From Anaerolineales bacterium (GTDB taxonomy: Bacteria; Chloroflexota; Anaerolineae; Anaerolineales; UBA4823): a stretch of DNA of 64,000 nucleotides. The translations under genes and the position numbers were made by a program. The notes under the pieces are model-generated. The model was not told the DNA's origin. It saw only the letters and a list, made by a program, of their open reading frames with translations, and made no database searches. Location of the stretch: assembly GCA_027494035.1 (NCBI GenBank), contig JAOSJQ010000001.1, forward strand, positions 3,040,796-3,104,795, given 5' to 3'. Within the stretch, counting starts at the first letter, position 1, and each line of letters begins with the position of its first letter. Positions 1,360 through 16,216 of this stretch are shown one piece after another.

Positions 1360-2871
1360 TTATTCGACCCAATCCAGCGTGCGTTGGACCGCCTTTTTCC
1401 ATTCGCGGAACAGACGGGCGCGTTCGCGCTGGTCCATTTGGGGCTGCCAGGTTTTATCGATCTGCCAGTTGGCGCGCAGGTCTTTCGGCTCGCTCCAGTA
1501 GCCGACTGCCAGACCGGCAGCGTAAGCCGCCCCGAGGGCGGTGGTCTCGGTGACCCGCGGGCGCAGGACGGGTACATTGAGGATATCGGATTGAAACTGC
1601 ATCAGCAGGTCGTTGTTGACCATCCCGCCGTCCACCTTTAGGGCGCTCAATTCCACGCCTGAATCGGCTTTCATCGCGTCCAAGACTTCGCGGGTCTGAA
1701 AGGCGGTGGCTTCGAGAGCCGCGCGGGCGATATGACCCTTGTTGATATAGCGCGTCATCCCGACGATTGCGCCGCGCGCGTCCGATCTCCAGTAGGGCGC
1801 AAACAGCCCCGAAAACGCCGGTACGAAATATATTCCACCATTGTCTGCGACGGTTTTAGCAAGCTCCTCGACCTCGGAGGAGTGCTGGATCAATCCCAGG
1901 TTGTCGCGCAGCCACTGCACCAATGCGCCGGTGATGGCGATCGACCCTTCGAGCGCATAATTCGCCGGGCTGGCGCCGAATTTGTAGCCCAGCGTCGTGA
2001 GCAGCCCGCTTTTCGACGGGACGATTTTCATGCCGGTGTTCAGTAGCATAAAGCAGCCCGTTCCATAGGTGTTCTTGGCTTCACCCGGGCTGAAACAGGT
2101 CTGCCCGACCAGCGCCGCCTGCTGATCCCCCAGATCGCCGCAGACCGGGATCTCGGCGCCGAAGGGACCGCTGCGCACGGAATGCCCCCAGGTGTCCGGG
2201 TCGCTGGACGGTACGATGCGCGGCAGCAGCGCGCGCGGCAATTGCAGCGCGGCGGTCATTTCAGCATCCCATTCCAGGGTTTCGAGGTTCATCAACAGTG
2301 TGCGGCTGGCGTTGCTCACATCCGTGACATGCGCGCCGCCGTCGGAGCCGCCGGTGAGCCACCAGATCAGCCAGGTATCAATGGTACCGAAGAGCGCGTG
2401 ACCCGCTTCGGCAGCCTGGCGGACGCCGGGGATGTTCTCCAGAATCCAGAGCGCTTTGGGACCGGAAAAATAGGTTGCGATCGGCAAGCCGGTGATGCGG
2501 CGGAAGCGGTCCTGCCCGCCCGCGGCTGCCAGCCGGTCGCAGATTTCTTTTGTGCGCGTGTCTTGCCACACGATCGCGTTGTAGTAGGGCTTACCGGTGC
2601 GCTTATCCCAAATCAGCGTGGTCTCGCGTTGATTGGTTACCCCAATTGAAACGATCGCGGCCGGGTTCACCTGAGAGGCTGCAAGCACGTCGCGGATCAC
2701 TTGCTGCGTATTCTCCCAAATCTCCAGCGGATCGTGCTCAACCCAACCGGGCTGGGGATAGATTTGGCGGTGCTCTTTCTGGGCGATGCCGGCGACTGCG
2801 CCGGAATGGGTGAACAGCATGCAGCGCGTGCTGGTCGTGCCCTGGTCGATGGAGGCAACGAACGCGTTCAT
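1360..2871 (-). CDS. glpK: glycerol kinase
   Basis: 503 aa. FGGY kinase signatures: [14 protein letters not shown] at the N-terminus, [13 protein letters not shown], and length typical of GlpK. Lies directly downstream of glpA. Confidence 0.95.
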
Positions 2872-3682: not shown

Positions 3683-5002
3683 TCAATGGGTGATGCGCGG
3701 ACCTACCCAAACCGCGGCGTTCTCGTCCGACTTGTTGTTGGCGCGCACTCTAAAGATGAAAGACACATATTGACCATTCAAGCCCAGGCTGCTCAGGTTG
3801 AGATCGATGTTAATCAGCGAGCCGGTGTAGGTTTTATCGAAAACTACGGAATCCTCGGAGACGCGGGTGTTCGGGGGCGCGATTACACGGTACACCAGTT
3901 CGAACGTGACATCGCACTTGTTCGCTCCGCTGCGGCAGCCGATCTGGGATACAAAGTGATCTCCGCTGAAGACGAGCATCGCCGGGAAGATCCCCTGGGT
4001 AATCCCGCCAGGCGCCCGCGGCGGGTTGGTCCATATGCCTCTGAAGCCAACGATCTGACCCGATTCCATGTTGGGGTTGTTCACCTGACGGACAAAACCT
4101 ACCGGAGCGCCGGTTTTTCCGTCGCAGCGGAGGTTGGTGACCAGATTTTTTTCTATGCGGATGGTGTTGCGAACCACACGCGCGTTGCTCTGATATTCGG
4201 CGTTGCAGATCTGGGCGGCGAAATCGTAAACCACGTTGGGCGGCGAATTGGAAACGTTCACGTTAACGCGGAACGGCTTCGAGCCATTGTCGCCAAAGTT
4301 TTCCTTGCCCGCGGTGAAGATCCATTCGCCGGTGAAGTTGCCCTCGGCGCTGGGGGTCAGCAGATTCACTGCCAGGTCGATCGTTTTTCCAGGCTGGACG
4401 CGCCCCGGCAAATTAATTGGGCTGCCGAAGAGCGGATCATGCTTGCCCACCGGGCGGAAGACAATTTTGGAATCCCAGGTGCAGGAGCCAGTGTTTTGGA
4501 CGCGCCAGACTTTCACAAAGCTGCGGTTGGTGGGCAGAAACTGCCCATTCGGGATCGTGACGTGCCGCACCAGGCGCGCTGCCAGGCAGGGCACAACGGC
4601 GCCACCGCCGCCGCCTCCTCCGCCGCCGCCCCCACCGCCGCCGCCCCCGCCGCCCGGAATCCAGGGTGTTACGCTTGGAATAAGGGTCGCGGTGTGGGTC
4701 GGCTCAGGCGTGTTGGTTGGGATTGCCGTCAGCATGGGGACCGGGGTGCTGGAGGCGGTCGGGGTGTTTGTGATGGTTGGCGTTTCAGATGGGATCGGAG
4801 TGTCGGTAGGCGGCGCCGGGGAGCTCGTCGGCGTTGCGGAAAGCGCCGCGACGGTTCGCATTACGACGAGGGTGCGTTCTGCCAGGGTCTCGGCAGCCCC
4901 GGGCGCGCTCGGGACGGACGGCGCGGTTGAGATTCCACAAGCAATGACTGCCAGCAGGGTGATTGCCGAGATCAGCGCCAGACGAGTGTTTTGTGTGTTC
5001 AT
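3683..5002 (-). CDS. secreted lipoprotein: PT-rich linker, poly-Gly tract, NBR1-FW (N_BRCA1_IG-like) domain and an unknown ~200-aa C-terminal domain
   Basis: Signal peptide with lipobox (LLAVIAC), T/P-rich linker and an 18-Gly run. The FW-like core follows: CLAARLVRHVTIPNGQFLPTNRSFVKVWRVQNTGSCTWD...GKTIDLAVNLLTPSAEGNFTGEWIF. It matches the human NBR1 FW pattern (F..D...G..L.PG..F.K.WR..N.G...W). Confidence 0.8.
   Translation of the reverse strand: MNTQNTRLALISAITLLAVIACGISTAPSVPSAPGAAETLAERTLVVMRTVAALSATPTSSPAPPTDTPIPSETPTITNTPTASSTPVPMLTAIPTNTPEPTHTATLIPSVTPWIPGGGGGGGGGGGGGGGGGGAVVPCLAARLVRHVTIPNGQFLPTNRSFVKVWRVQNTGSCTWDSKIVFRPVGKHDPLFGSPINLPGRVQPGKTIDLAVNLLTPSAEGNFTGEWIFTAGKENFGDNGSKPFRVNVNVSNSPPNVVYDFAAQICNAEYQSNARVVRNTIRIEKNLVTNLRCDGKTGAPVGFVRQVNNPNMESGQIVGFRGIWTNPPRAPGGITQGIFPAMLVFSGDHFVSQIGCRSGANKCDVTFELVYRVIAPPNTRVSEDSVVFDKTYTGSLINIDLNLSSLGLNGQYVSFIFRVRANNKSDENAAVWVGPRITH
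4601..4654 (-). repeat. GCC/GCC-like triplet tract (18 consecutive Gly codons on the coding strand)
   Basis: The + strand reads gcc acc gcc gcc gcc tcc tcc gcc gcc gcc ccc acc gcc gcc gcc ccc gcc gcc. It is in frame with the 3683..5002 ORF (reverse complement GGN x18). Confidence 0.9.
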
Positions 5003-5043
5003 GGATCCTCCAGCCCTCTTGTTCGTTACACCTTTAGTATAGA

Positions 5044-5078
5044 CAAAAATCTTCCCAACTGCAAGGGGTAGTTGGGAA
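5044..5078 (-). terminator. intrinsic terminator downstream of the 5143..5838 gene
   Basis: 8-bp stem tcccaact (5053-5060) / agttggga (5070-5077). On the minus strand it is followed by AGATTTTTGT. Confidence 0.6.
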
Positions 5079-5142
5079 AATTTTTGTAAAAATTTTTAAG
5101 TTTGTAAAACCGATTTCACGAATCGTCTTTTTGGCACTGTGC

Positions 5143-5838
5143 TCAGCCGGGGGTCGGTTTTGGCGTGGGTTTGATTTGGATCACCACTGAGAGAGGCTGC
5201 GCGCCATCAACGCCAAGCCCGAATAAGTTGCCTGCGGGATCGCTCAGCACCCAGTAGCCGGTCGAACTCGTTATCCCGCTGGGGGCGACCAAGTCGAGCC
5301 GGATTTCCACGGTTTCGCCCGGGTTAACCGGGTGGGGCAGTTGGATCTGGGCGGGTCCGTTCATTTCATCGCCGGAGTAGAAACGCAGCGAATAGGCTTC
5401 GCTCCAGACACAGCCGCTGGTGTTCTTAACCAGCCAGATCTTCGCAAACGGCTGTCCTGCCTGGAGAGCGGTGTTGTCGGAAATGGACAGGTGGCGGACA
5501 AATTCGGCTGAGTTGGCGCAGGCTGGCGCGGCGGTCGCCTCCGGGGATTGCGCGGTTTCCGCGGAATTGTTCACCGGCGTGTGGGTGGGAGGCAGATTTA
5601 CATGAACGGTAGGCGCAGGAGGCTGAGTAGGTGCGGGGGTGGGCGTGAAATTCACCGCTGGCAGGTCCAGCCTGAGCATGCGCACAACGATCGGAGTGGC
5701 GATCATTTGCGCGGAAGCCGAATTTGAAGCGCTGGGACTTCCTGTCGAAGCGCAACCTGCCAGGATAACCGCGCTCAGCGCCCAAGCCAGGCGCAGGATG
5801 TTTTTTTGGATCATATTCTCGCTCGCTGACTGGCGCAA
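5143..5838 (-). CDS. secreted lipoprotein with NBR1-FW domain (paralog 2)
   Basis: Lipobox AVILAGCAST and a P/T-rich linker, then CANSAEFVRHLSISDNTALQAGQPFAKIWLVKNTSGCVWSEAYSLRF...VNPGETVEIRLDLVAPSGITSSTGYWVLSDPAGNLFG. The true start may be the internal Met (MIQKNIL, about 5814). Confidence 0.85.
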   Translation of the reverse strand: MRQSASENMIQKNILRLAWALSAVILAGCASTGSPSASNSASAQMIATPIVVRMLRLDLPAVNFTPTPAPTQPPAPTVHVNLPPTHTPVNNSAETAQSPEATAAPACANSAEFVRHLSISDNTALQAGQPFAKIWLVKNTSGCVWSEAYSLRFYSGDEMNGPAQIQLPHPVNPGETVEIRLDLVAPSGITSSTGYWVLSDPAGNLFGLGVDGAQPLSVVIQIKPTPKPTPG

Positions 5839-5858
5839 CGCGCCAGAAGGTTGGCTTA

Positions 5859-6494
5859 TCAGCCGCAGGAGAGGGTCTCCAGCAGGCGCTTATTAAACTT
5901 GAGCGGTTCGACCACAACAACGGCTGAAAAAGGTTGGTCGGCTGCCGCGCCGGCGCCAAACGTATTTCCAGCGGGATCTTTTAGCATCCAGTAACTGGAA
6001 TAGGTATTGGGCTCCATGGGCGTGACCATCGTCACTTGAACGTCGACCGTCTCGCCGGGTTTTACCTCGTGAGTCAGCATGGTCTCGGAAACAGAGCTGA
6101 AATTGTCGCCGTTGTTGAAGACAAACGCGTAATCGGTGGTCCAGGTGCACGTCCCGATATTTTTGATGCGCCAGACTTTGGCAAAATAAACCCCGGGCAG
6201 CAGTTGGGTGTTATCCGACACGGACAGGTGGCGCACAAACTCTGCCTGGTTGGTGCACGCCTGAATGGTCGGGCTGGGCGGAACCGGGGAGGCAGGCACT
6301 TCAGTTGCCGGCGGTTTTTGCGTGCTGGTCGGCGTAGGGGTGGGGACGCTCGTGTTGGTGGGTAAGGGCGTATGGGTCGGCAAAGCTGGGGAACTGGTTG
6401 CCGTGAATTGAAGCGCAGCCGGGTTAGTTTGCTTCGGGGAGGCGCAAGACGCAAGTAAAATCAGACACACCAATAAGAGTGTAACTCGTTTCAT
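5859..6494 (-). CDS. secreted lipoprotein with NBR1-FW domain (paralog 3)
   Basis: Track ORF 5859..6593 trimmed to ATG 6494 (MKRVTLLLVCLILLASCASP), which is preceded by AAGGA. Core: CTNQAEFVRHLSVSDNTQLLPGVYFAKVWRIKNIGTCTWTTDYAFVF...VKPGETVDVQVTMVTPMEPNTYSSYWMLKDPAGNTFG. Confidence 0.85.
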   Translation of the reverse strand: MKRVTLLLVCLILLASCASPKQTNPAALQFTATSSPALPTHTPLPTNTSVPTPTPTSTQKPPATEVPASPVPPSPTIQACTNQAEFVRHLSVSDNTQLLPGVYFAKVWRIKNIGTCTWTTDYAFVFNNGDNFSSVSETMLTHEVKPGETVDVQVTMVTPMEPNTYSSYWMLKDPAGNTFGAGAAADQPFSAVVVVEPLKFNKRLLETLSCG

Positions 6495-6555
6495 AACCTT
6501 ATCCTTCTTTACCAGTTTTAGTCGCCGGCGATCCACGCCAGCCAGGTTATTTCTT

Positions 6556-7296
6556 TCAACCCCCGCCGCCGCAGATGCCAAAGACCTGCCCAAGCCCGTC
6601 GAGGCCTTGCAGGCGCCCTACGGCGACCGCCACCCAGATGAAGTTATTGGGCCCGGAGCTGGTCCCGAACTGTTCCCCCTCTTCGTTCTCGAACATCCAG
6701 TTTCCCTGATAAACGCCTTTAACGGTTGGCGCAACCAGGTCGACCGAGATGTTGACCATCTCGCCCGGCGGCACTTCGAGACCGATCGGTTTTGGCGAGA
6801 GACCGCCCATGCGATCGCCAAAGGTGAACACGAGCGTGTAATTCGGCGTCCAGACGCAGGTCCCGCTGTTGAGCATCCGCCAGACTTTGGTGAACCGCTG
6901 ACCCGGTTTCACTTCGGTCAAATCCGGGAAGGATATATCGGCGACGAACTGCGCTTTGTTCTTGCAGAGGTCGGCGTACTCATAAGAATCAAGGCTGCGA
7001 TCGAGGGGCGTCAACGACGGCGCCGGCGTTGCGCTGGGGTACGGCTGTGGCTGCTCAATTGAATTGCTGAGATGGACTTCATCAAAAACGGCAACCAGCT
7101 CGGGCTCGGGCGACGGCGTTGCGGTTGCAAAATAACTCACGCCTTGCTGGGCAACCAGCGTGCGCACGGCGAGGGTATGTGCCAGACCGGGGACTTCAGA
7201 TGGCTGCGGGCGGCTGGAGCAGGCGCTGGATAATACCACTAAGACGATTGCGGTGACGATAAGTCTGGATCTCGTGATCATGCTATTCTTCCTCAA
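6556..7296 (-). CDS. secreted (lipo)protein with NBR1-FW domain (paralog 4)
   Basis: Signal anchor IVTAIVLVVLSSACSS. Core: CKNKAQFVADISFPDLTEVKPGQRFTKVWRMLNSGTCVWTPNYTLVF...VPPGEMVNISVDLVAPTVKGVYQGNWMFENEEGEQFG. Confidence 0.85.
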   Translation of the reverse strand: MRKNSMITRSRLIVTAIVLVVLSSACSSRPQPSEVPGLAHTLAVRTLVAQQGVSYFATATPSPEPELVAVFDEVHLSNSIEQPQPYPSATPAPSLTPLDRSLDSYEYADLCKNKAQFVADISFPDLTEVKPGQRFTKVWRMLNSGTCVWTPNYTLVFTFGDRMGGLSPKPIGLEVPPGEMVNISVDLVAPTVKGVYQGNWMFENEEGEQFGTSSGPNNFIWVAVAVGRLQGLDGLGQVFGICGGGG

Positions 7297-7444: not shown

Positions 7445-10204
7445 TTAATCCAGCGCTTCAACCCGCACTGCACAGATCTTGTATTCCGGGATCTTGGCAA
7501 CCGGATCGAGCGCCGCAATCGTCAACTCGTTGGCGGATGATTCAGGAAAGTGAAAGTTGGAGAAAATCATCCCCGTTGGAACCCGGTCAGTGATCCAGGC
7601 GTGGGCTTCAATGCTGCCCCGGCGTGAGCTGACGCGGACGCGGCGTTTGCCGTTCAGCCCCAGCATGCGCGCGTCCTCGGGATTAATCTCGATTTTTGCG
7701 TGACTGTAGATCTCGAGCAAGCCTGCGGATCTGCGGGTCATCTCGCCGCCGTGCCAGTGATACAGAACGCGCCCGGTGTTGAGCAGCATGGGATAAGCTT
7801 CGTCCGGCAGTTCGGCTGGCGGGACGTGCTCGACCGGCATGAAATGACCCTTGCCGCGCGTGAACTGTCCGACATGCAGGATCGGCGTGCCGGGGTGTTC
7901 GGCGTCTTTGACGGGCCAGTGCAGCCCGGCGGGGTCGCGTTCGAGGCGGGCGTGCGATACGCCAGCGTAGCTGGGTGTCAGCGCCGCCACCTCGTCCATG
8001 ATCTGGGAAGTGTTTTCGTATTCCCAGCCGGAATAGGGCGCGGGTTGAACCTGGCGCGCGCCCTGGGCGAGCACCCGGCGCGCGATTTCCGCGATGATCC
8101 ACCAATCCGGGCGCGCCTCTCCCGGCGGAGATATCGCCTGGTGGACCATCTGGACGCGGCGCTCGGTGTTGGTAAATGTGCCCGATTTTTCGGCGAAGCT
8201 TGCGCCAGGCAGCAAGATATCGGCATACGGCGAGGTCTCAGAGGGGAAGATCTCCTGCAGGATCACCAGGTCGCACTCTTCCATGCACTTGCGGATGTGG
8301 CTGCTGTTGGGGTCGCTCACTATCGGGTCTTCGCCCAGGACGTAGAGGGCGTGAATCTTGTCCTCTTCGATCCCAGGGATCATTTCGGTCACCGTCATTC
8401 CCACGGTTTGAGATAGCTGGGCGCCCCAGGCAGCTTCGAACTTCTCCCGGCTGGCGTCCAGTGTGACGTTCTGATACCCGGAATAGACGTTGGGCAGCCC
8501 GCCCATATCGCAGGCGCCCTGCACGTTGTTCTGACCGCGCAGAGGGTTGACGCCCCCGCCCGGAACTCCGAGGTTGCCCAGCATCATTTGTAGGTTTGCC
8601 AGGTCCATCACGTTGTTGACGCCGACGATGTGCTGGGTGATCCCCATTGCCCACATGACTGCCATAGGCTTGTTGGTCGCCAGGATCTCCGCCGCTTCGT
8701 AGAGCTTTTCGAGCGGGATGCCGGTGAGCTGCGCCACGTGCTCCGGAGTGTAGTGTTCGAGCGTTTGGCGCACTTCATCGAAGCCCTCGGTGCGGTTGAG
8801 GATAAAATCGCGATCCTCCCAGCCTTTTTCGAGGATGATGTTCATCAGCCCGTTGACCAGCGGGATATCGGTGCCCGGTCTGAGCTGTAAGTGCAGCGTC
8901 GCAAATTCGGTGATGTCGATTTTGCGCGGGTCCGCGACGACGAGCTTTACCCCGCGATGCATGACTGCCTGACGGATCATCGTGCCAAACACGGGATGTT
9001 GTTCAGTGGTGTTCGAGCCGATGATCAGCATTGCTTTCGCATGTGAAGCGATATCTGCCATCGTGTTGGTCATTGCGCCAGAGCCAAAGGAAGCCGCCAG
9101 ACCGGCGACCGTGCTGGAGTGTCAGAGACGGGCGCAGTGATCGATATTATTCGTGCCAATGACTTGCCGGGCAAACTTATTGAACAGATAATTTTCTTCG
9201 TTGAGGCATTTGGCTGAACACAATATCCCCAGGCTGTTTGAACCGTAGATATCGCGGCAGGCGCTCAGCTTTGCTGCGGTGAGGTCCAGCGCGGTATCCC
9301 AGTCCACCGTGACCCACTCGCCGCGACCCGGCGGGCGCGGCGTGCCATCTAAGAGATATTTGCGCACCTGCGGCTGGGTCAGGCGGTCGGGGTGATGGAT
9401 GAAATCGTATCCGTAACGTCCCTTGACGCAGAGGCGCATGCCGTTGACGGCGGCGTCGGAGTTGGAGGTGACCCGAATGACCTTGTCGTCTTTCACGTTG
9501 AGTTCGAGCTGGCATCCAACCCCGCAGTAGGTGCAGGTTGTAGTCACCTTGCGATCCGCCGCGCCGAGGTGCAGCGACATTTTGTTGTTGAGCGCGCCGG
9601 TGGGGCAGTACGCTACGCACGCGCCGCACGATTCGCAGCGCGCGTCCAGCATGGTGGTACCCGCCCCGGCGACCACCTGCGTGTGTGCGCCGCGCGCGGC
9701 CAGGCTCCAGACGAAGCGACCCTGCACATCAGCGCAGGCGCGAATACAGCGCGTGCACAGAATGCATTTATTCATATCCACCCAGACGAAGGGGTTGGGG
9801 TCGCTGTCGACGCGATAACGGGGCTGTTTTGCCATTGCCTGCTCAAGGTCGATGTGATAATGCTCAGCCCAATGCAGCAGTTCATTTGACCCGCCGAGCC
9901 CGTCTTCATAGCCTTGATCGTAATAATCCGACAGGAGCAATTCCAAGATGCCGCGGCGCGCTTCCGCCAGCGCCGGGTTTTCGGTAATCACTTCCATATC
10001 CTGGCTGACCGGCAGCGCGCAAGACGCCATGGGCAGGCGGTAGCCTTTCACTTCCACCACACACAAGCGGCAGCCACCGTAGGGCGTCAGATCGGGATGG
10101 TCGCACAGGGTTGGAATGGTGATGCCCGCAGCTTCCGCGGCGCGCAGGACGGTGGTGTTCTCTGGGACTTCAACGGTTTTACCGTCAATTTTCAAGGTTA
10201 TCAT
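7445..10204 (-). CDS. fdhA: formate dehydrogenase catalytic (alpha) subunit, selenocysteine-containing; single gene read through TGA at 9122..9124
   Basis: Track ORFs 9122..10204 and 7445..9073 are in the same frame. The junction reads ...[33 protein letters not shown]..., which matches the E. coli FdhF Sec site (CCARV-U-HGPSVAGL..[8 protein letters not shown]). The N-terminus has 2Fe-2S and 4Fe-4S Cys clusters, then TTCTYCGVGC (molybdopterin 4Fe-4S). The C-terminal half is a molybdopterin oxidoreductase. Confidence 0.9.
9093..9124 (-). promoter_or_regulatory. Sec codon (UGA 9124..9122) plus SECIS-like hairpin
   Basis: The mRNA reads UGA CAC UCC AGC ACG GUCGCC-GGUCU-GGCGGC. This is a 6-bp stem (one G-U pair) with a GGUCU loop starting 18 nt after the UGA. 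E. coli fdhF SECIS has the same loop sequence and spacing (..GUUGCA GGUCU GCAC..). Confidence 0.75.
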
Positions 10205-10271: not shown

Positions 10272-11954
10272 TCACGCGGATGCCAGCGGCTGCATTTCCT
10301 CCGCCGCGGGGGCCTCGACCCGCATCGGGCAGACGCCGGTCGGACACACCCCCAACTGGATGTGGGCTTCCACTTCGGTCCTGAAGTGTTTGAGCATGTC
10401 ACGGATCGGCACTGCGGCGGTCTGACCCAAGCCGCAGTTTGAAAGCCTTACCATTTGATCCGCCAGCTTTAACAACTCGTCCAGGGCGTCAAGCTCCGCC
10501 TGTCCTTGAGTGATGCGCGTGAGAATTTCATAGCTGCGCTGGGTACCGATGCGGCAGGGGGTGCATTTGCCGCAGCTTTCAAAACGGAAGAAGTTGAGCA
10601 GCACTTTTACCAGGTCCACTACACAGGTGTTTTCGTCGGCGATCAGCAGCGCGCCCGAGCCGAGCGAAACGCCGGCTTTGCGCGTGGCTGCGAAATCCAG
10701 CGGCGTGTCTTGCAGGCTGGCGGGGATCAGCGAACCGCTCGAGCCTCCCGTCTGCGCCAATTTGAACGCTGCCCCGTTTTTCATCCCCTTGGCGTAGATG
10801 CTAATCGCTTCCCGGAGCGTAATCCCCATCGGGACTTCGAACACGCCGGTCAGGTTGACATTTCCGAAGATGGTGTAGACTTTCGTCCCCGGGCTGCTGG
10901 GGGTTCCAAATTTTTTGTACCATTCGCCGCTCCGCCGCAGGATCGGCGGAACGTTTGCCAGCGTCTCGACGTTGTTCACCAGCGTGGGGCAGCCCCACAG
11001 CCCATGCGTGGTAGGGTAGGGGGGACGCGAGCGCGGTTCGCCGCGCTTGCCTTCGATCGATTCGATCAGCGCGGTTTCCTCGCCGCAGACGTAAGCGCCG
11101 GCGCCGGAGTGGATGTGCAGGTGGAAGCTGAAATCCGTGCCCAGGATATGCTCGCCGAGCAAGCCCAACGCTTGCGCCTGCTCGATCGCCTTTTGGAAGC
11201 GCTGCTGCGCCAGTTGATACTCTCCCCGAATGTAGATAAAGCCTTCGTCAGCGCCGATTGCATAAGCCGCCAGCGCCATAGCTTCGACGATCGAATGGGG
11301 GTCGCTTTCCAGGATCACCCGGTCTTTGTAGGTGCCCGGTTCGCTTTCGTCGGCGTTGCAGATCACGTATTTTTTGCTCCCGGACGTGGAGGCGACGATC
11401 TCCCATTTTTTGCCCGTCGGAAAGCCCGCGCCGCCGCGCCCCTGTAAGCCTGAAATCGTCAGTTCTTCAATCACCTGGGCGGGCGTCATCTGCGTCAACG
11501 CTTTTGTCAGCGCTTGATAGCCGTCGTAGATGATGTAATCCTCGATGCTTTCCGGGTCGATCCGCCCGGCGCGTTCCAGCACAATGCGCTGCGCTGCCGG
11601 CAGCGCGCCGGAGCGCGCCGCCAGCCAGGCGATTCGTCCGGTGAGCTGGTGTTTTGGGACGATCATCTCCTCGATGACGCGACCCTGCGACAGATGTTCT
11701 TTCACGATCCGTCCGGCGTCCGCAGGATGGACGGGTCCATACACGACGGCTTCGGGGTAGATGATGACCAGCGGTAATAAGTTTTTGGCGCCCACGTCCA
11801 CAATCGTGTTGAGATCCACTTCGTTTGCCAACCCACAGCGGTCAATTTCAGTCCGAAGCGCTTGCAGCAGTTCCTGGCTGCCCAGCCGGCGGCTTTCCGA
11901 GTCGTCAGATACGAGAACCAGCGCACGTTTATTGATCACCTTTACCTCCATCAT
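10272..11954 (-). CDS. NAD(H)-binding flavoprotein subunit of formate dehydrogenase (NuoF/FdsB-like) with a Cys-less thioredoxin-like N-terminal domain
   Basis: 560 aa. GLQGRGGAGFPTGKKW (FMN/NADH site) and ESCGKCTPCR (4Fe-4S). Its start overlaps the upstream stop as ATGA (11951-11954). Confidence 0.9.
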   Translation of the reverse strand: MMEVKVINKRALVLVSDDSESRRLGSQELLQALRTEIDRCGLANEVDLNTIVDVGAKNLLPLVIIYPEAVVYGPVHPADAGRIVKEHLSQGRVIEEMIVPKHQLTGRIAWLAARSGALPAAQRIVLERAGRIDPESIEDYIIYDGYQALTKALTQMTPAQVIEELTISGLQGRGGAGFPTGKKWEIVASTSGSKKYVICNADESEPGTYKDRVILESDPHSIVEAMALAAYAIGADEGFIYIRGEYQLAQQRFQKAIEQAQALGLLGEHILGTDFSFHLHIHSGAGAYVCGEETALIESIEGKRGEPRSRPPYPTTHGLWGCPTLVNNVETLANVPPILRRSGEWYKKFGTPSSPGTKVYTIFGNVNLTGVFEVPMGITLREAISIYAKGMKNGAAFKLAQTGGSSGSLIPASLQDTPLDFAATRKAGVSLGSGALLIADENTCVVDLVKVLLNFFRFESCGKCTPCRIGTQRSYEILTRITQGQAELDALDELLKLADQMVRLSNCGLGQTAAVPIRDMLKHFRTEVEAHIQLGVCPTGVCPMRVEAPAAEEMQPLASA

Positions 11955-12448
11955 TCGTATCTCGACAGGATTTCCGGCAGCCGTTCGGGTGTGACATTGC
12001 CGTACATATCTTCGTCGATCACAACTACCGGTCCGACCCCGCAGGCGCCGAGGCAGCTAGTGGTCACCAGCGACCACTTTCCGTCGGGGCTGGTTTCGCC
12101 GGCGCTCAGCGAGAGCTGCTCCTGTAAAGCCTGCCAGACCGCCCTTCCGCCGGTCACGTGGCAGGGCGCGCTTTCGCAAAACAACACAATGTGCCGGCCG
12201 CGCGCTTTGAGCGACAGCATATGATAGAAAGACGCCAGCGAGAAGAGATGCCCCTCTTGAATGAGCCGGTCTCCGACCGGCGCGTTGAGATGCTTTTTGA
12301 TCTCGGTCAGCGCTTTGACCGGGATGTACCCATACTCCTGGTTGACCTCCAGCAAGATGGGGATAAGCGCATCGGGCGAAGTGCCGTGTTTTTCGATTGC
12401 CAGGCGCGCCATTTCTTTGTATCCGTTATCCGTTGTATGAGCGCTCAT
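11951..12448 (-). CDS. NuoE/FdsG-like [2Fe-2S] thioredoxin-like ferredoxin subunit
   Basis: 165 aa. CESAPCHVTGG ... CLGACGVGPVVVID, the NuoE 2Fe-2S ligand pattern. Confidence 0.85.
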   Translation of the reverse strand: MSAHTTDNGYKEMARLAIEKHGTSPDALIPILLEVNQEYGYIPVKALTEIKKHLNAPVGDRLIQEGHLFSLASFYHMLSLKARGRHIVLFCESAPCHVTGGRAVWQALQEQLSLSAGETSPDGKWSLVTTSCLGACGVGPVVVIDEDMYGNVTPERLPEILSRYE

Positions 12449-12481: not shown

Positions 12482-12886
12482 CTAACCGAGTTGGGCGAGC
12501 AGCTGCTCGATCCGATATTCTTCCACAACCTTACCGCCCAGCAGGTGTTCGGTGAGGATGCGTTCGGCGACCGCCTCCGTCACCTTTCCGTACGTCACCT
12601 CCGGGTTGCCGCCGATTACGACCCGCACGATTGGCTCCAGCGAGTCGTAACCGATGTTTGCCGTCTGCTGGACGTGGACGTGCTCGAGTTTGCGCGCGGC
12701 GACGTAATCCAGGATCGTTTTCAGCGTCCTGGAAGCGCCTGAGGCGAGCGCGGGCGTGCTCAGATCGACGGTCATCCAGGCATCCCCGGTTTCTGCCTGG
12801 CGTTGTTTATTTTGCAGGGCTGCCTGACGCAATTGATCGAGGTCAGCCAGGGATTTTATCGTTGTCATTTCACACTCCGTGTTCAC
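12482..12886 (-). CDS. small thioredoxin-like-ferredoxin-fold protein lacking the Cys ligands (HndB / HymB-N-terminal-like)
   Basis: The pattern ...MTVDLSTPALASGASRTLKTILDYV...EPIVRVVIGGNPEVTYGKVTEAVAERILTEHLLGGKVVEEY resembles Trx-like 2Fe-2S domains, but the cluster cysteines are absent. The likely true start is ATG 12868 (MTTIKSL), which has GGAG 7 nt upstream. Confidence 0.5.
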   Translation of the reverse strand: MNTECEMTTIKSLADLDQLRQAALQNKQRQAETGDAWMTVDLSTPALASGASRTLKTILDYVAARKLEHVHVQQTANIGYDSLEPIVRVVIGGNPEVTYGKVTEAVAERILTEHLLGGKVVEEYRIEQLLAQLG

Positions 12887-13024: not shown

Positions 13025-13873
13025 TTAATTGGATGCGGACGGGCTGGTTTGCCCGAGGCGAATTTCTATTCCAGCCGGATCGTTCATTGAGGGGAGGACG
13101 ATCCGCTCGGGATGGGCGTAGATCCTGAAGCGCTCGCGGCTGGCGTAGCCGATCAGCGTTATTCCGTGTTTCTCCGCCAGGGCAATCGAGAGCGAGCTGG
13201 GCGAGGTGCGCGACAGCACAATCTCTGCCCCGATGCGGTGCGCTTTTTGGAGCATTTCCGAGCTCACGCGCCCGGTGGTCAGCAGGATGCTTGGGTCGGG
13301 ATCGAGGTTGTCCAGCAGGCACTTGCCGGCAATTTTATCGAGAGTGTTGTGCCGCCCGATGTCTTCCGCCATGACGTTGAGACCTTTGTGGTTGGTCAGC
13401 ACCGAGGTGTGAACGCCGCCGGTTTTCTGGTACAGGTCCTGCGAAATAAGCAAACGGCTGACCAGTTCTCTAACCTGTCTGGCGTCCAGAAGCAGCCCGT
13501 TGTGCGGCTGGGTGAGCGCGGAAGGCGCCAGCAGATTTTCCGGCGATATGGAGGTCACGCCGCCGGTGCAGCCCGAGGTCTTGCGCCAGTTGTCGGGTTT
13601 TTCGACTGAATGATTGAGCCATACATCGATGTTATCGCCCGTGGGACACAGGCGTACGTCGGCAATCGCGCTGGTGGACTGGATCACCCCTTCGTTGTAG
13701 AGGAAGCCCACCGCGAGCGCCGGCAGATCTACGGGGGTGCACATAAACGTCAACCAGACTTCGCCATTTACCGTCAGGGAAACGGGCGTTTCCACGATGA
13801 TCTCGGCATGATGGATCGCCCATTTGTTGGCATCCACCAGTAAATAAGAGATAGGTTCGTTTGGGAGGGTCAT
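13025..13873 (-). CDS. fdhD: formate dehydrogenase accessory sulfurtransferase FdhD
   Basis: 282 aa. KTSGCTGG active-site loop and EDIGRHNTLDKIAGK (FdhD hallmark). Sits at the head of the fdh cluster. Confidence 0.9.
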   Translation of the reverse strand: MTLPNEPISYLLVDANKWAIHHAEIIVETPVSLTVNGEVWLTFMCTPVDLPALAVGFLYNEGVIQSTSAIADVRLCPTGDNIDVWLNHSVEKPDNWRKTSGCTGGVTSISPENLLAPSALTQPHNGLLLDARQVRELVSRLLISQDLYQKTGGVHTSVLTNHKGLNVMAEDIGRHNTLDKIAGKCLLDNLDPDPSILLTTGRVSSEMLQKAHRIGAEIVLSRTSPSSLSIALAEKHGITLIGYASRERFRIYAHPERIVLPSMNDPAGIEIRLGQTSPSASN

Positions 13874-14896: not shown

Positions 14897-16216
14897 TCAG
14901 CGGATGACCCACCCGGCGATTTCGTCCACCGCGACCGAGAAGTTCGCGGCGGATTCGGCGCGGATCGCCAACCCATACAAACCGCCCGAATATGTCCCGT
15001 CGGTGAACGAATAGAGCAGGGTGTTGTTGGCGTAAAACTGGAACTCCGCGCCCACGGCTGAGATACCCATCACATTGGTCTGGTTGGCGCCGGGGTGGAT
15101 GGCGGGATTGGTGGTCCAGTTTTGGATGTTGTTGAAATTTCCGTTGTCCATGCGGTAGACGCGATATTTTCCATCGCAGGAGAAGCTGAACACATAGCCC
15201 GAATTGATATTTCCATCTGGCTTGGAGGGCGCTCGCACGAGCATCCCGTAGCCGTCTTTTCCGTTACAGATGCTGCCTGGCATGAAGATCGTCTGCAGAT
15301 AGAAGTTATCCAGGAAGGAAGCCTGAGCAACCCGCCACTGGTCGCCGGTCGGTTTGAGCGCCGTGATCACCAGCTTCCCGTCTGCGATGTTGTAATTCAT
15401 GCCCGAGTCGGTGCCCAGGAAGAACGGACTGCGATCCGAGCCAAAGCCCACGGTCCAAGAAGGGTCGCCGAGGTTCTGCGGGCGGCTGACCGATGGCGAA
15501 CCGGCGGTCGGGTTGACGGTGGGGTTGGCGCCCTGAACGACCTGGATTTTGACCCAAAAAGGCGTTTTGGCGTCGCTGCCCAGCCCGAACTCGACGCCGT
15601 CGGTCGAGCGCAGCATCCAATCGCCCTGGAAGACGCCGGGGTTGGCGGGCGCTGTTTGGGGCAGAAAGATCTGCAGGGTATTTCCGGGCGGCACGGTCTG
15701 ACCGATGGGAACCGGGCTGGTACCGGACATCCGCTCGCCCCCGATGGAGACCAGCGAATAGGCGGGGTTCCAAACGCAGGTGCCGACGTTGCGCAGCGTC
15801 CAGGTCTTGATAAATTCCTGGTTGGGACCGAAGATCGAGAGATCCGGCACGGTTTCCTCTACCAGTTTTGCCAGATTAACGCAGCCGGGCAGGCTGGTCG
15901 CCGGCGGGGTGACGATCGTCGCTGCCTCGGTAGGGGCGGGGGTTGGCTGAACCTCGCTGGGCGGGACGGGGGTTGCTTCCGCGGTCGGGATTGCGGTGGC
16001 AGGCGGAACCTCCGTGGGCGCCGGCTGGGCGGTGGCGGTCAAGAATAGGTTGACCGCCATGGCGGTTTTGGTCTGGGCGACGATGGTATCCAGGTCGGGT
16101 CCGGCGGGTTTGCCGGGCAGGTTGCACGCAGAAAGGAGGATTGCGGCGAGAAGCAGGGTCGCAAGCGCTGACGCAAGCGGTTTGGGATTTATATGGGGTC
16201 TCATCAGTCTCTCCAT
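14897..16216 (-). CDS. secreted lipoprotein: NBR1-FW domain (paralog 5) fused to a C-terminal concanavalin/LamG-like (DUF1080-like) domain
   Basis: Lipobox AAILLSACN and a PT linker, then CVNLAKLVEETVPDLSIFGPNQEFIKTWTLRNVGTCVWNPAYSLVS...VPPGNTLQIFLPQTAPANPGVFQGDWMLRSTDGVEFG. The C-terminal ~190 aa (..GYGMLVRA..GYVFSFSCDGKYRVYR..GLYGLAIRAES..) looks like a jelly-roll lectin fold. The likely start is ATG 16204 (MRPHIN), preceded by GGAGAG. Confidence 0.75.
   Translation of the reverse strand: MERLMRPHINPKPLASALATLLLAAILLSACNLPGKPAGPDLDTIVAQTKTAMAVNLFLTATAQPAPTEVPPATAIPTAEATPVPPSEVQPTPAPTEAATIVTPPATSLPGCVNLAKLVEETVPDLSIFGPNQEFIKTWTLRNVGTCVWNPAYSLVSIGGERMSGTSPVPIGQTVPPGNTLQIFLPQTAPANPGVFQGDWMLRSTDGVEFGLGSDAKTPFWVKIQVVQGANPTVNPTAGSPSVSRPQNLGDPSWTVGFGSDRSPFFLGTDSGMNYNIADGKLVITALKPTGDQWRVAQASFLDNFYLQTIFMPGSICNGKDGYGMLVRAPSKPDGNINSGYVFSFSCDGKYRVYRMDNGNFNNIQNWTTNPAIHPGANQTNVMGISAVGAEFQFYANNTLLYSFTDGTYSGGLYGLAIRAESAANFSVAVDEIAGWVIR

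Follow-up and report, generated by a model that had tools for sequence, protein, structure and literature searches.

What does the in-frame TGA codon in a putative formate dehydrogenase gene of an Anaerolineales bacterium stand for: the boundary between two genes, a mutation, or a selenocysteine (Sec)? The codon separates two open reading frames (ORFs) on the minus strand, 9122-10204 and 7445-9073, in a stretch of 64,000 nucleotides of assembly GCA_027494035.1 (contig JAOSJQ010000001.1, positions 3,040,796 to 3,104,795), hereafter called the window; positions are those of the window unless a contig is given. A first-pass annotation, made from the letters of the window, had proposed that the two ORFs form one selenoprotein gene, fdhA, with a hairpin resembling the Sec insertion sequence (SECIS) of Escherichia coli fdhF, rather than two genes or a pseudogene. 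The pattern of TGA and cysteine (Cys) codons in orthologs, the specificity of the hairpin for TGA genes and the genes of the Sec machinery lead us to the same answer: the gene at 7445-10204 (minus strand) of this metagenome-assembled Anaerolineae genome very probably encodes a single selenoprotein of 919 residues, in which UGA361 is decoded as Sec. The features on which the argument turns are the following:

7445-10204, minus strand: predicted complete fdhA/fdsA coding sequence, 919 residues with Sec361 (Pfam, TIGR01591, alignment with the FdsA structure)
9122-9124, minus strand: in-frame UGA, predicted to be read as Sec361, followed by CAC (His362) (alignment with FdsA Cys386 and FdhF Sec140; codons of the orthologs)
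9093-9109, minus strand: core of the putative SECIS hairpin (covariation, RNAalifold, contrast between Sec and Cys orthologs, scan for chance hairpins)
9069-9127, minus strand: full-length, sub-threshold match to the Rfam family SECIS_3 (RF01989), 35.3 bits, with an E value of 6e-7 that refers to the short stretch searched

The reading frame and its product

Both the sequence and its translation bear out that the two ORFs lie in one common frame. Codon 1 is located at 10204 and the terminal stop at 7445, and translation with TGA read as U gives 919 codons in which the TGA at 9124-9122 is the sole internal stop. U is residue 361 of the joined product, with His362 next to it. On the minus strand the site reads CAC TGC GCC CGT CTC before the TGA and CAC TCC AGC ACG GTC GCC GGT CTG GCG GCT after it, continuing with TCC TTT GGC TCT GGC GCA ATG ACC AAC.

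All five expected domains were identified in the joined product with Pfam: an N-terminal 2Fe-2S domain (Fer2_4), 4Fe-4S modules, Molybdop_Fe4S4, Molybdopterin and Molydop_binding. The last three (PF04879, PF00384, and PF01568) each exceed their gathering threshold, giving the MopB architecture, and the Molybdopterin domain (residues 274-709) spans the TGA. A four-Cys Fe4S4 motif (C-x2-C-x3-C...C) is visible at residues 223-258. The equivalog model for the alpha subunit of formate dehydrogenase (TIGR01591) scored 801.8 bits (cut-off 666.25) and was covered over its full length (profile positions 1-672 of 672). The nearest solved relatives are the NAD-dependent FdsA subunits of Rhodobacter capsulatus (6tg9_A; E 8e-217, residues 3-917) and of Methylobacterium and Cupriavidus, and the structure of E. 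coli FdhH aligns with residues 218-917.

At the active site, U361-H362 aligns on the Cys-His of CARVCHSPTGYGL (R. capsulatus FdsA, Cys386, motif CARVCHS). Alignment of the joined protein with both FdhF and FdsA places the site on Sec140 and Cys386, respectively, and the PLRGQNNVQG motif with the catalytic arginine is identical to that of 6tg9, so that metal ligand, histidine and arginine are all accounted for. Judged by sequence, the gene specifies the complete alpha subunit of an FdsA/FdhA-type formate dehydrogenase. As predicted from the family, it would catalyze the oxidation of formate or the reduction of CO2 with a molybdenum or tungsten bis-molybdopterin guanine dinucleotide cofactor.

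The first-pass annotation had expected automated gene calling to split the gene, and this is what has happened: the two halves are held as separate proteins in NCBI, JGI/IMG, ENA, and Logan. In an exact look-up the N-terminal half was stored at 360 residues and the C-terminal half at 542, 528 or 447 residues; the 360-residue product is recorded on 20 contigs from several sources. The main value of the present analysis is the correction of a gene held as two fragments in public collections. Because the catalytic subunit is stored in pieces, formate metabolism could be missed or wrongly scored when the metabolism of these Anaerolineae is reconstructed, and the dependence on selenium would be overlooked.

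The hairpin in selenocysteine and cysteine orthologs

The hairpin is located within the ORF, just 3' of the UGA, on the minus strand. Its 5' arm (G9109-C9104, GUCGCC) and 3' arm (G9098-C9093, GGCGGC) enclose the loop GGUCU (9103-9099), and a seventh pair, G9110-U9092, is possible in the window sequence. The first-pass annotation placed the structure eighteen nt after the UGA; this holds for the loop, which begins 18 nt past the A of the UGA, but not for the stem, which begins at 12 nt. Numbered from the U of the UGA, the G-U of the loop occupies positions 23-24. Bacterial SECIS elements have a stem of 6-8 bp and a conserved loop G approximately 20 nt after the UGA, and are bound by winged-helix domains 3-4 of SelB, for which the structure 1WSU is cited (PMC4605307); the stem of 6-7 bp and the G-U of the loop found here agree with this general description. 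In a permissive search of the short stretch, RF01989 was matched over model positions 1-59, starting one codon before the UGA, and its upper stem and loop GUCU agree with the window sequence.

Hairpins with a 6-bp stem and a 5-nt loop of at least equal stability occur at 45 of 127,968 window positions (3.5e-4), and only three of these 45 carry a GGUCU loop. A second GGUCU hairpin (GCUGCC-GGUCU-GGCAGU, -8.7 kcal/mol) was observed at 1505-1521 (minus strand), within a glycerol-kinase-like ORF (1360-2871). Since no in-frame TGA lies upstream of it, we take it to be a chance structure over Ala-Gly-Leu-Ala-type codons.

A protein search of 40 related genomes identified orthologs at 62-80% identity, nearly all of which contain exactly one in-frame TGA, with two containing none; more distant homologs (46-53% identity) have one TGA as well. 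We aligned the DNA of 22 loci around the site, where the TGA column holds TGA in 20 and TGC in two. For the 7-bp helix, five of the seven tested pairs change on both sides in a compensatory manner, and the covariation score of 0.297, compared to 0.166 in shuffled alignments, was not reached in any of 500 shuffles. The true helix also scored far above helices slid by 1-3 columns.

A scan with one genome per species extended the comparison to 80 named loci, all from Anaerolineae/Chloroflexota and including Thermanaerothrix daxensis, Bellilinea caldifistulae, Ornatilinea apprima, and Anaerolinea thermophila. The codon at the site is TGA in 59 of the 80 and TGC or TGT in 21 (L064, L066, L067, L070, L071, L074, L082-L084, L086, L088, L099, L103, L108, L113, L114, L117, L122, L124, L127, and L128). 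The two groups compare as follows:

Perfect 6-bp stem: 59 of 59 TGA genes (8 stem variants), 1 of 21 Cys genes
GGTCT loop: 59 of 59 TGA genes, 9 of 21 Cys genes
Glycine codon GGT: 59 of 59 TGA genes, 12 of 21 Cys genes
Leucine codon CTG: 59 of 59 TGA genes, 13 of 21 Cys genes
Histidine codon CAC: 59 of 59 TGA genes, 13 of 21 Cys genes

Synonymous sites are thus frozen in the Sec genes and variable in the Cys genes, although the encoded peptide (HSSTVAGLA..) is nearly the same. The hairpin energies of the two groups do not overlap (Mann-Whitney p = 5e-12, a value that ignores the relatedness of the sequences). To allow for relatedness, a protein tree was built with the site masked. On this tree the Sec/Cys state changes 11 times, at least eight of them on well-supported branches, and an intact hairpin accompanies Sec in 7-8 of eight phylogenetically independent pairs (sign test p ~0.008). 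For 55 distinct Sec sequences RNAalifold predicted only the 6-bp helix, with zero broken pairs; one stem pair is GC in 42, CG in eight and AU in five of them. The hairpin proposed in the first-pass annotation is therefore present, shows compensatory conservation and is specific to the TGA genes, and the comparative evidence places it far beyond chance.

Several observations nevertheless weigh against this interpretation. No SECIS was found in the window at the gathering threshold, and RF01989, at 35.3 bits, stays below its gathering score of 63, since the seven lower-stem pairs of the model are not formed here. The folding energy of the single 66-nt stretch was unexceptional (z = 0.27). Neither the alignment of relatives nor RNAalifold yielded a conserved lower stem, and U17, whose bulging in the minimal E. 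coli element matters for SelB binding, is not bulged here: at 9108 it is paired, with G or A, in every one of the 59 Sec orthologs. The GGUCU loop overlaps conserved Gly-Leu codons, so its conservation is in part driven by the protein, for which the Cys orthologs serve as the control. Moreover, selenium insertion in this metagenome-assembled organism is deduced from sequence. A lower helix, CCAG/UUGG, was predicted by RNAfold for the window sequence and was rejected, as it is not kept in the relatives and not predicted by RNAalifold.

Taken with the comparative data, the element appears to work like members of the SECIS_3 family, yet falls outside the threshold of the curated model. The SECIS of this lineage would be a minimal hairpin of 17 nt, with a 5-nt GGUCU loop and with neither a bulged U nor a lower helix, which suggests that a SelB can need only an apical hairpin at a fixed distance.

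Many Cys orthologs keep five of the six stem pairs or the GGTCT loop, as a 'fossil' SECIS. In Ornatilinea apprima (L117) a TGC codon stands beside a fully paired hairpin, which suggests a recent replacement of Sec by Cys. Replacement of Sec by Cys has been reported mainly for FdhA and SelD, in some cases with SECIS-like remnants, and Chloroflexi are among the phyla listed with selenoproteins (PMC1794560). It seems likely, with some reservation, that the FdsA-type enzyme of the Anaerolineae, with its minimal SECIS, switched between Sec and Cys at least eight times among 81 orthologs; most switches probably went from Sec to Cys, because many Cys genes keep a decaying 'fossil' hairpin. If true, nature would offer here an exceptionally dense set of Sec/Cys enzyme pairs that are close relatives, and the ortholog set, in which Sec and Cys forms of the same enzyme can be paired, could be used for comparing catalysis.

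Two orthologs from the same genus, L131 (G001:C2:585300-588300) and L132 (G004:C9:460300-463500), retain the Sec TGA and HSSTVAGLA but are disrupted by several frameshifts, which may reflect either indel errors in long-read assemblies or real pseudogenes.

Decoding machinery and alternative explanations

The first-pass annotation implied that selA, selB, selC, and selD are present elsewhere in the genome. All four were found, on the same 3.65-Mb contig (C1) as the window. The selB gene (C1:2854369-2856288) scored 312.6 bits, or 353.4 with the C-terminal part (cut-off 242.25), and its full-length, 642-residue ORF (C1:2854366-2856294) combines EF-Tu-like domains with the winged-helix domains SelB-wing_2 (PF09106) and SelB-wing_3 (PF09107). 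For selA (C1:1130013-1131338) the score was 545.5 bits (cut-off 267.9). The tRNA-Sec gene, with anticodon TCA (C1:338153-338247), was identified by ARAGORN and by RF01852 (74.4 bits, threshold 47). The selD gene (C1:1837057-1837992, minus strand; 356.2 bits, cut-off 125) contains one in-frame TGA itself. The first base of this TGA is at C1:1837962, in the context ..SNCAG-U-ASKL.., at the position equivalent to Cys17, and stable hairpins follow, including GGCGCAG-GUU-CUGCGCC approximately 29 nt downstream. SelD is therefore a candidate selenoprotein too, and the metagenome-assembled genome can be documented as Sec-decoding, with at least two predicted selenoproteins, FdhA and SelD.

Other candidate selenoproteins were considered and rejected. 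A paralog at C1:3546430-3548847 (plus strand; 54% identity over residues 1-797) has a tyrosine at the ligand position (..CCAHIYASDL..) and, because tyrosine replaces Sec/Cys, is probably a non-catalytic NuoG/HoxU-like protein. A second paralog at C1:512316-514406 (plus strand; 45% identity) is FdhF-like and of the Cys type (..HCTRLCHAGSV..). In the window, the ORF at 5859-6593 was dismissed as an Rcas_1661 (seleno)lipoprotein; it scored 21 bits with NCBIfam (cut-off 190) and lacks an in-frame TGA. A scan of the window for other TGA codons that link two open frames, each at least 100 codons long, gave none comparable, the remaining cases having the appearance of adjacent genes or antisense frames.

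The TGA could also mark a pseudogene, that is, a Cys-type formate dehydrogenase in which a nonsense mutation or sequencing error changed TGC to TGA and the hairpin is a coincidence of the codons for VAGLA. The codons are one base apart, Cys is used in 21 of the 80 orthologs, frameshifted copies exist in two genomes of the same genus, and public gene callers take the TGA as a stop. Against this, the same TGA recurs in 59 of the 80 orthologs to approximately 65% identity and in the distant homologs at 46-53%, and the N-terminal 360-residue product ending at the TGA occurs on 20 contigs from several sources, which argues against a one-off assembly error. The sequence downstream is open and conserved, the catalytic arginine motif included, the hairpin and the constraint on synonymous sites are limited to TGA genes, and the full Sec machinery is encoded. 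We consider a pseudogene very improbable; the pattern in the orthologs effectively refutes it. Two independent genes, a 360-residue NuoG-like Fe-S protein and a 542-residue molybdopterin protein starting at ATG 9073, are precisely what ORF callers return, and this ATG lies 16 codons past the TGA. It is, however, the conserved methionine of G-x-G-A-M-[ST]-N, which is present in E. coli FdhF too, and the 16 codons between TGA and ATG show protein-level conservation in every ortholog. Separate genes would also break the Molybdopterin domain in two, with loss of the metal-ligating residue. Instead of a true stop with an independent start downstream, orthologs have either one TGA or a Cys codon, and those with Cys are single, unbroken genes. 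That the locus holds two genes is thus exceedingly improbable.

Readthrough by other means would keep the protein in one piece: a near-cognate tRNA could insert tryptophan or cysteine, or UGA could be reassigned in the whole lineage, with the hairpin merely slowing the ribosome. All 59 Sec genes have UGAC, a weak termination context, and downstream hairpins can in general stimulate readthrough. Yet TGA is the commonest stop in the genome, where it ends 729 of 1441 long frames; TGA is an ordinary stop elsewhere and there is therefore no genome-wide reassignment. The genome encodes a dedicated tRNA-Sec together with SelA, SelD and a SelB that has SECIS-binding domains, the codon occupies the position of the Sec/Cys metal ligand of the family, and the G-U dinucleotide of the loop lies at the canonical distance. 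Readthrough without Sec is for these reasons very unlikely, and decoding of UGA361 as Sec is the reading that we retain.

How decoding would proceed can be proposed from the E. coli and Moorella systems, which also serve as the model here for the binding of SelB, the insertion of Sec, the nature of the metal and the electron acceptor. As the ribosome nears the UGA, the mRNA downstream would fold into the hairpin of 6-7 bp, presenting the GGUCU loop 18 nt past the UGA to the C-terminal winged-helix domains of SelB. SelB-GTP, competing with release factor 2, would then bring Sec-tRNA(Sec) with its UCA anticodon to the A site; charging of this tRNA would go via SelA, with selenophosphate provided by SelD. 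Sec361 would then ligate the metal in the folded enzyme. With selenium or SelB in short supply, translation would be expected to stop at codon 361.

The gene is an ordinary, mis-annotated member of FdhA, the most widespread bacterial selenoprotein family, and leaves current understanding unchallenged. Only two points are mildly new, the dense occurrence of independent Sec/Cys switches in the lineage and the minimal hairpin, and the known mechanism is unchanged.

The gene cluster and known formate dehydrogenases

The fdhA gene closes a collinear minus-strand cluster that spans 13873 to 7445 and begins with fdhD. The genes that precede it are:

13025-13873, minus strand: fdhD, formate dehydrogenase sulfurtransferase/maturation factor, head of the cluster (PF02634, E 7e-68)
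12482-12886, minus strand: ORF of 134 residues between fdhD and the NuoE-like gene, no family assigned (no Pfam match)
11951-12448, minus strand: NuoE-like, thioredoxin-like [2Fe-2S] ferredoxin subunit, FdsG-like (PF01257, E 2e-38)
10272-11954, minus strand: NuoF-like FMN/NAD(H)-binding subunit, FdsB-like (Complex1_51K, NADH_4Fe-4S)

The NuoF-like subunit scored 512 bits with TIGR01959, below the cut-off of 558.65, and 420 bits with NF010120, above the cut-off of 389. At its residues ~25-100 an extra N-terminal module was observed that weakly resembles 2Fe-2S thioredoxin-like ferredoxins (NF041612, E 3e-8). The NuoE-like and NuoF-like genes and fdhD stand beside an alpha subunit with a NuoG-like N-terminus, the arrangement of an FdsGBA-type enzyme. 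Pfam and NCBIfam scans of the cluster, in which the 134-residue ORF remained without a Pfam match, recognized no FdsD-like gene. By analogy, the cluster presumably encodes a cytoplasmic FdsGBA-type, NuoE/NuoF-linked formate dehydrogenase that contains molybdenum or tungsten and depends on NAD(P). On either side of it are five paralogous ORFs with the Pfam domain N_BRCA1_IG (NBR1 'FW'), at 3683-7296 and 14897-16216 (both minus strand); four of the five are in tandem, immediately downstream of fdhA.

In E. coli K-12 MG1655 the corresponding site of fdhF reads TGC GCT CGT GTC TGA CAC GGC CCA TCG GTT GCA GGT CTG CAC. Read directly, it matches the alignment with Sec140 (CARV-U-HGPSVAGL) that had been put forward in the first-pass annotation, and the motif common to both is CAR[VL]-U-H...VAGL. 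As in the window, the hairpin is inside the ORF straight after the UGA, and GGTCTG has the identical offset from the TGA, with the G-U of the loop likewise at positions 23-24. The claimed likeness to the E. coli SECIS is accurate in this respect, but the two elements are not identical. In that of E. coli, an A-U pair closes a GGUC tetraloop, U17 is bulged and a lower helix extends back as far as the UGA, whereas the window element has a 5-nt loop closed by C-G, a paired U17 and no conserved lower helix. The proteins differ as well, since E. coli FdhF has 715 residues and lacks the NuoG-like N-terminal Fe-S domains of the window protein. The dependence of E. coli on SelA, SelB, SelC, and SelD would be the same here, given the presence of the genes.

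The FdsGBA(CD) enzymes of R. capsulatus (6tg9), Cupriavidus necator, and Methylobacterium (7vw6/7e5z) are the closest in structure over the full length of the protein, with E values of ~1e-217. Their gene neighbors are the same in content (NuoE-like, NuoF-like, fdhD); the window cluster differs in that no FdsD homolog was recognized and in having the additional 134-residue ORF and the extra N-terminal module of the NuoF-like subunit. The structurally characterized FdsA enzymes use Cys (Cys386 in R. capsulatus), whereas the window protein is predicted to use Sec.

A Sec-containing enzyme of similar build is the NADP-dependent tungsten- and selenium-containing formate dehydrogenase of Moorella thermoacetica. 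Its alpha subunit has approximately 900 residues with an Fe-S extension at the N-terminus, and its partner is NuoF-like. The SECIS of Moorella fdhA is a simple hairpin, in which the G and U of the loop are bound by the winged-helix domains of SelB, and it has been crystallized with SelB winged-helix domains 3-4 (PDB 1WSU). Its loop and stem are presumably identical to those of the window element.

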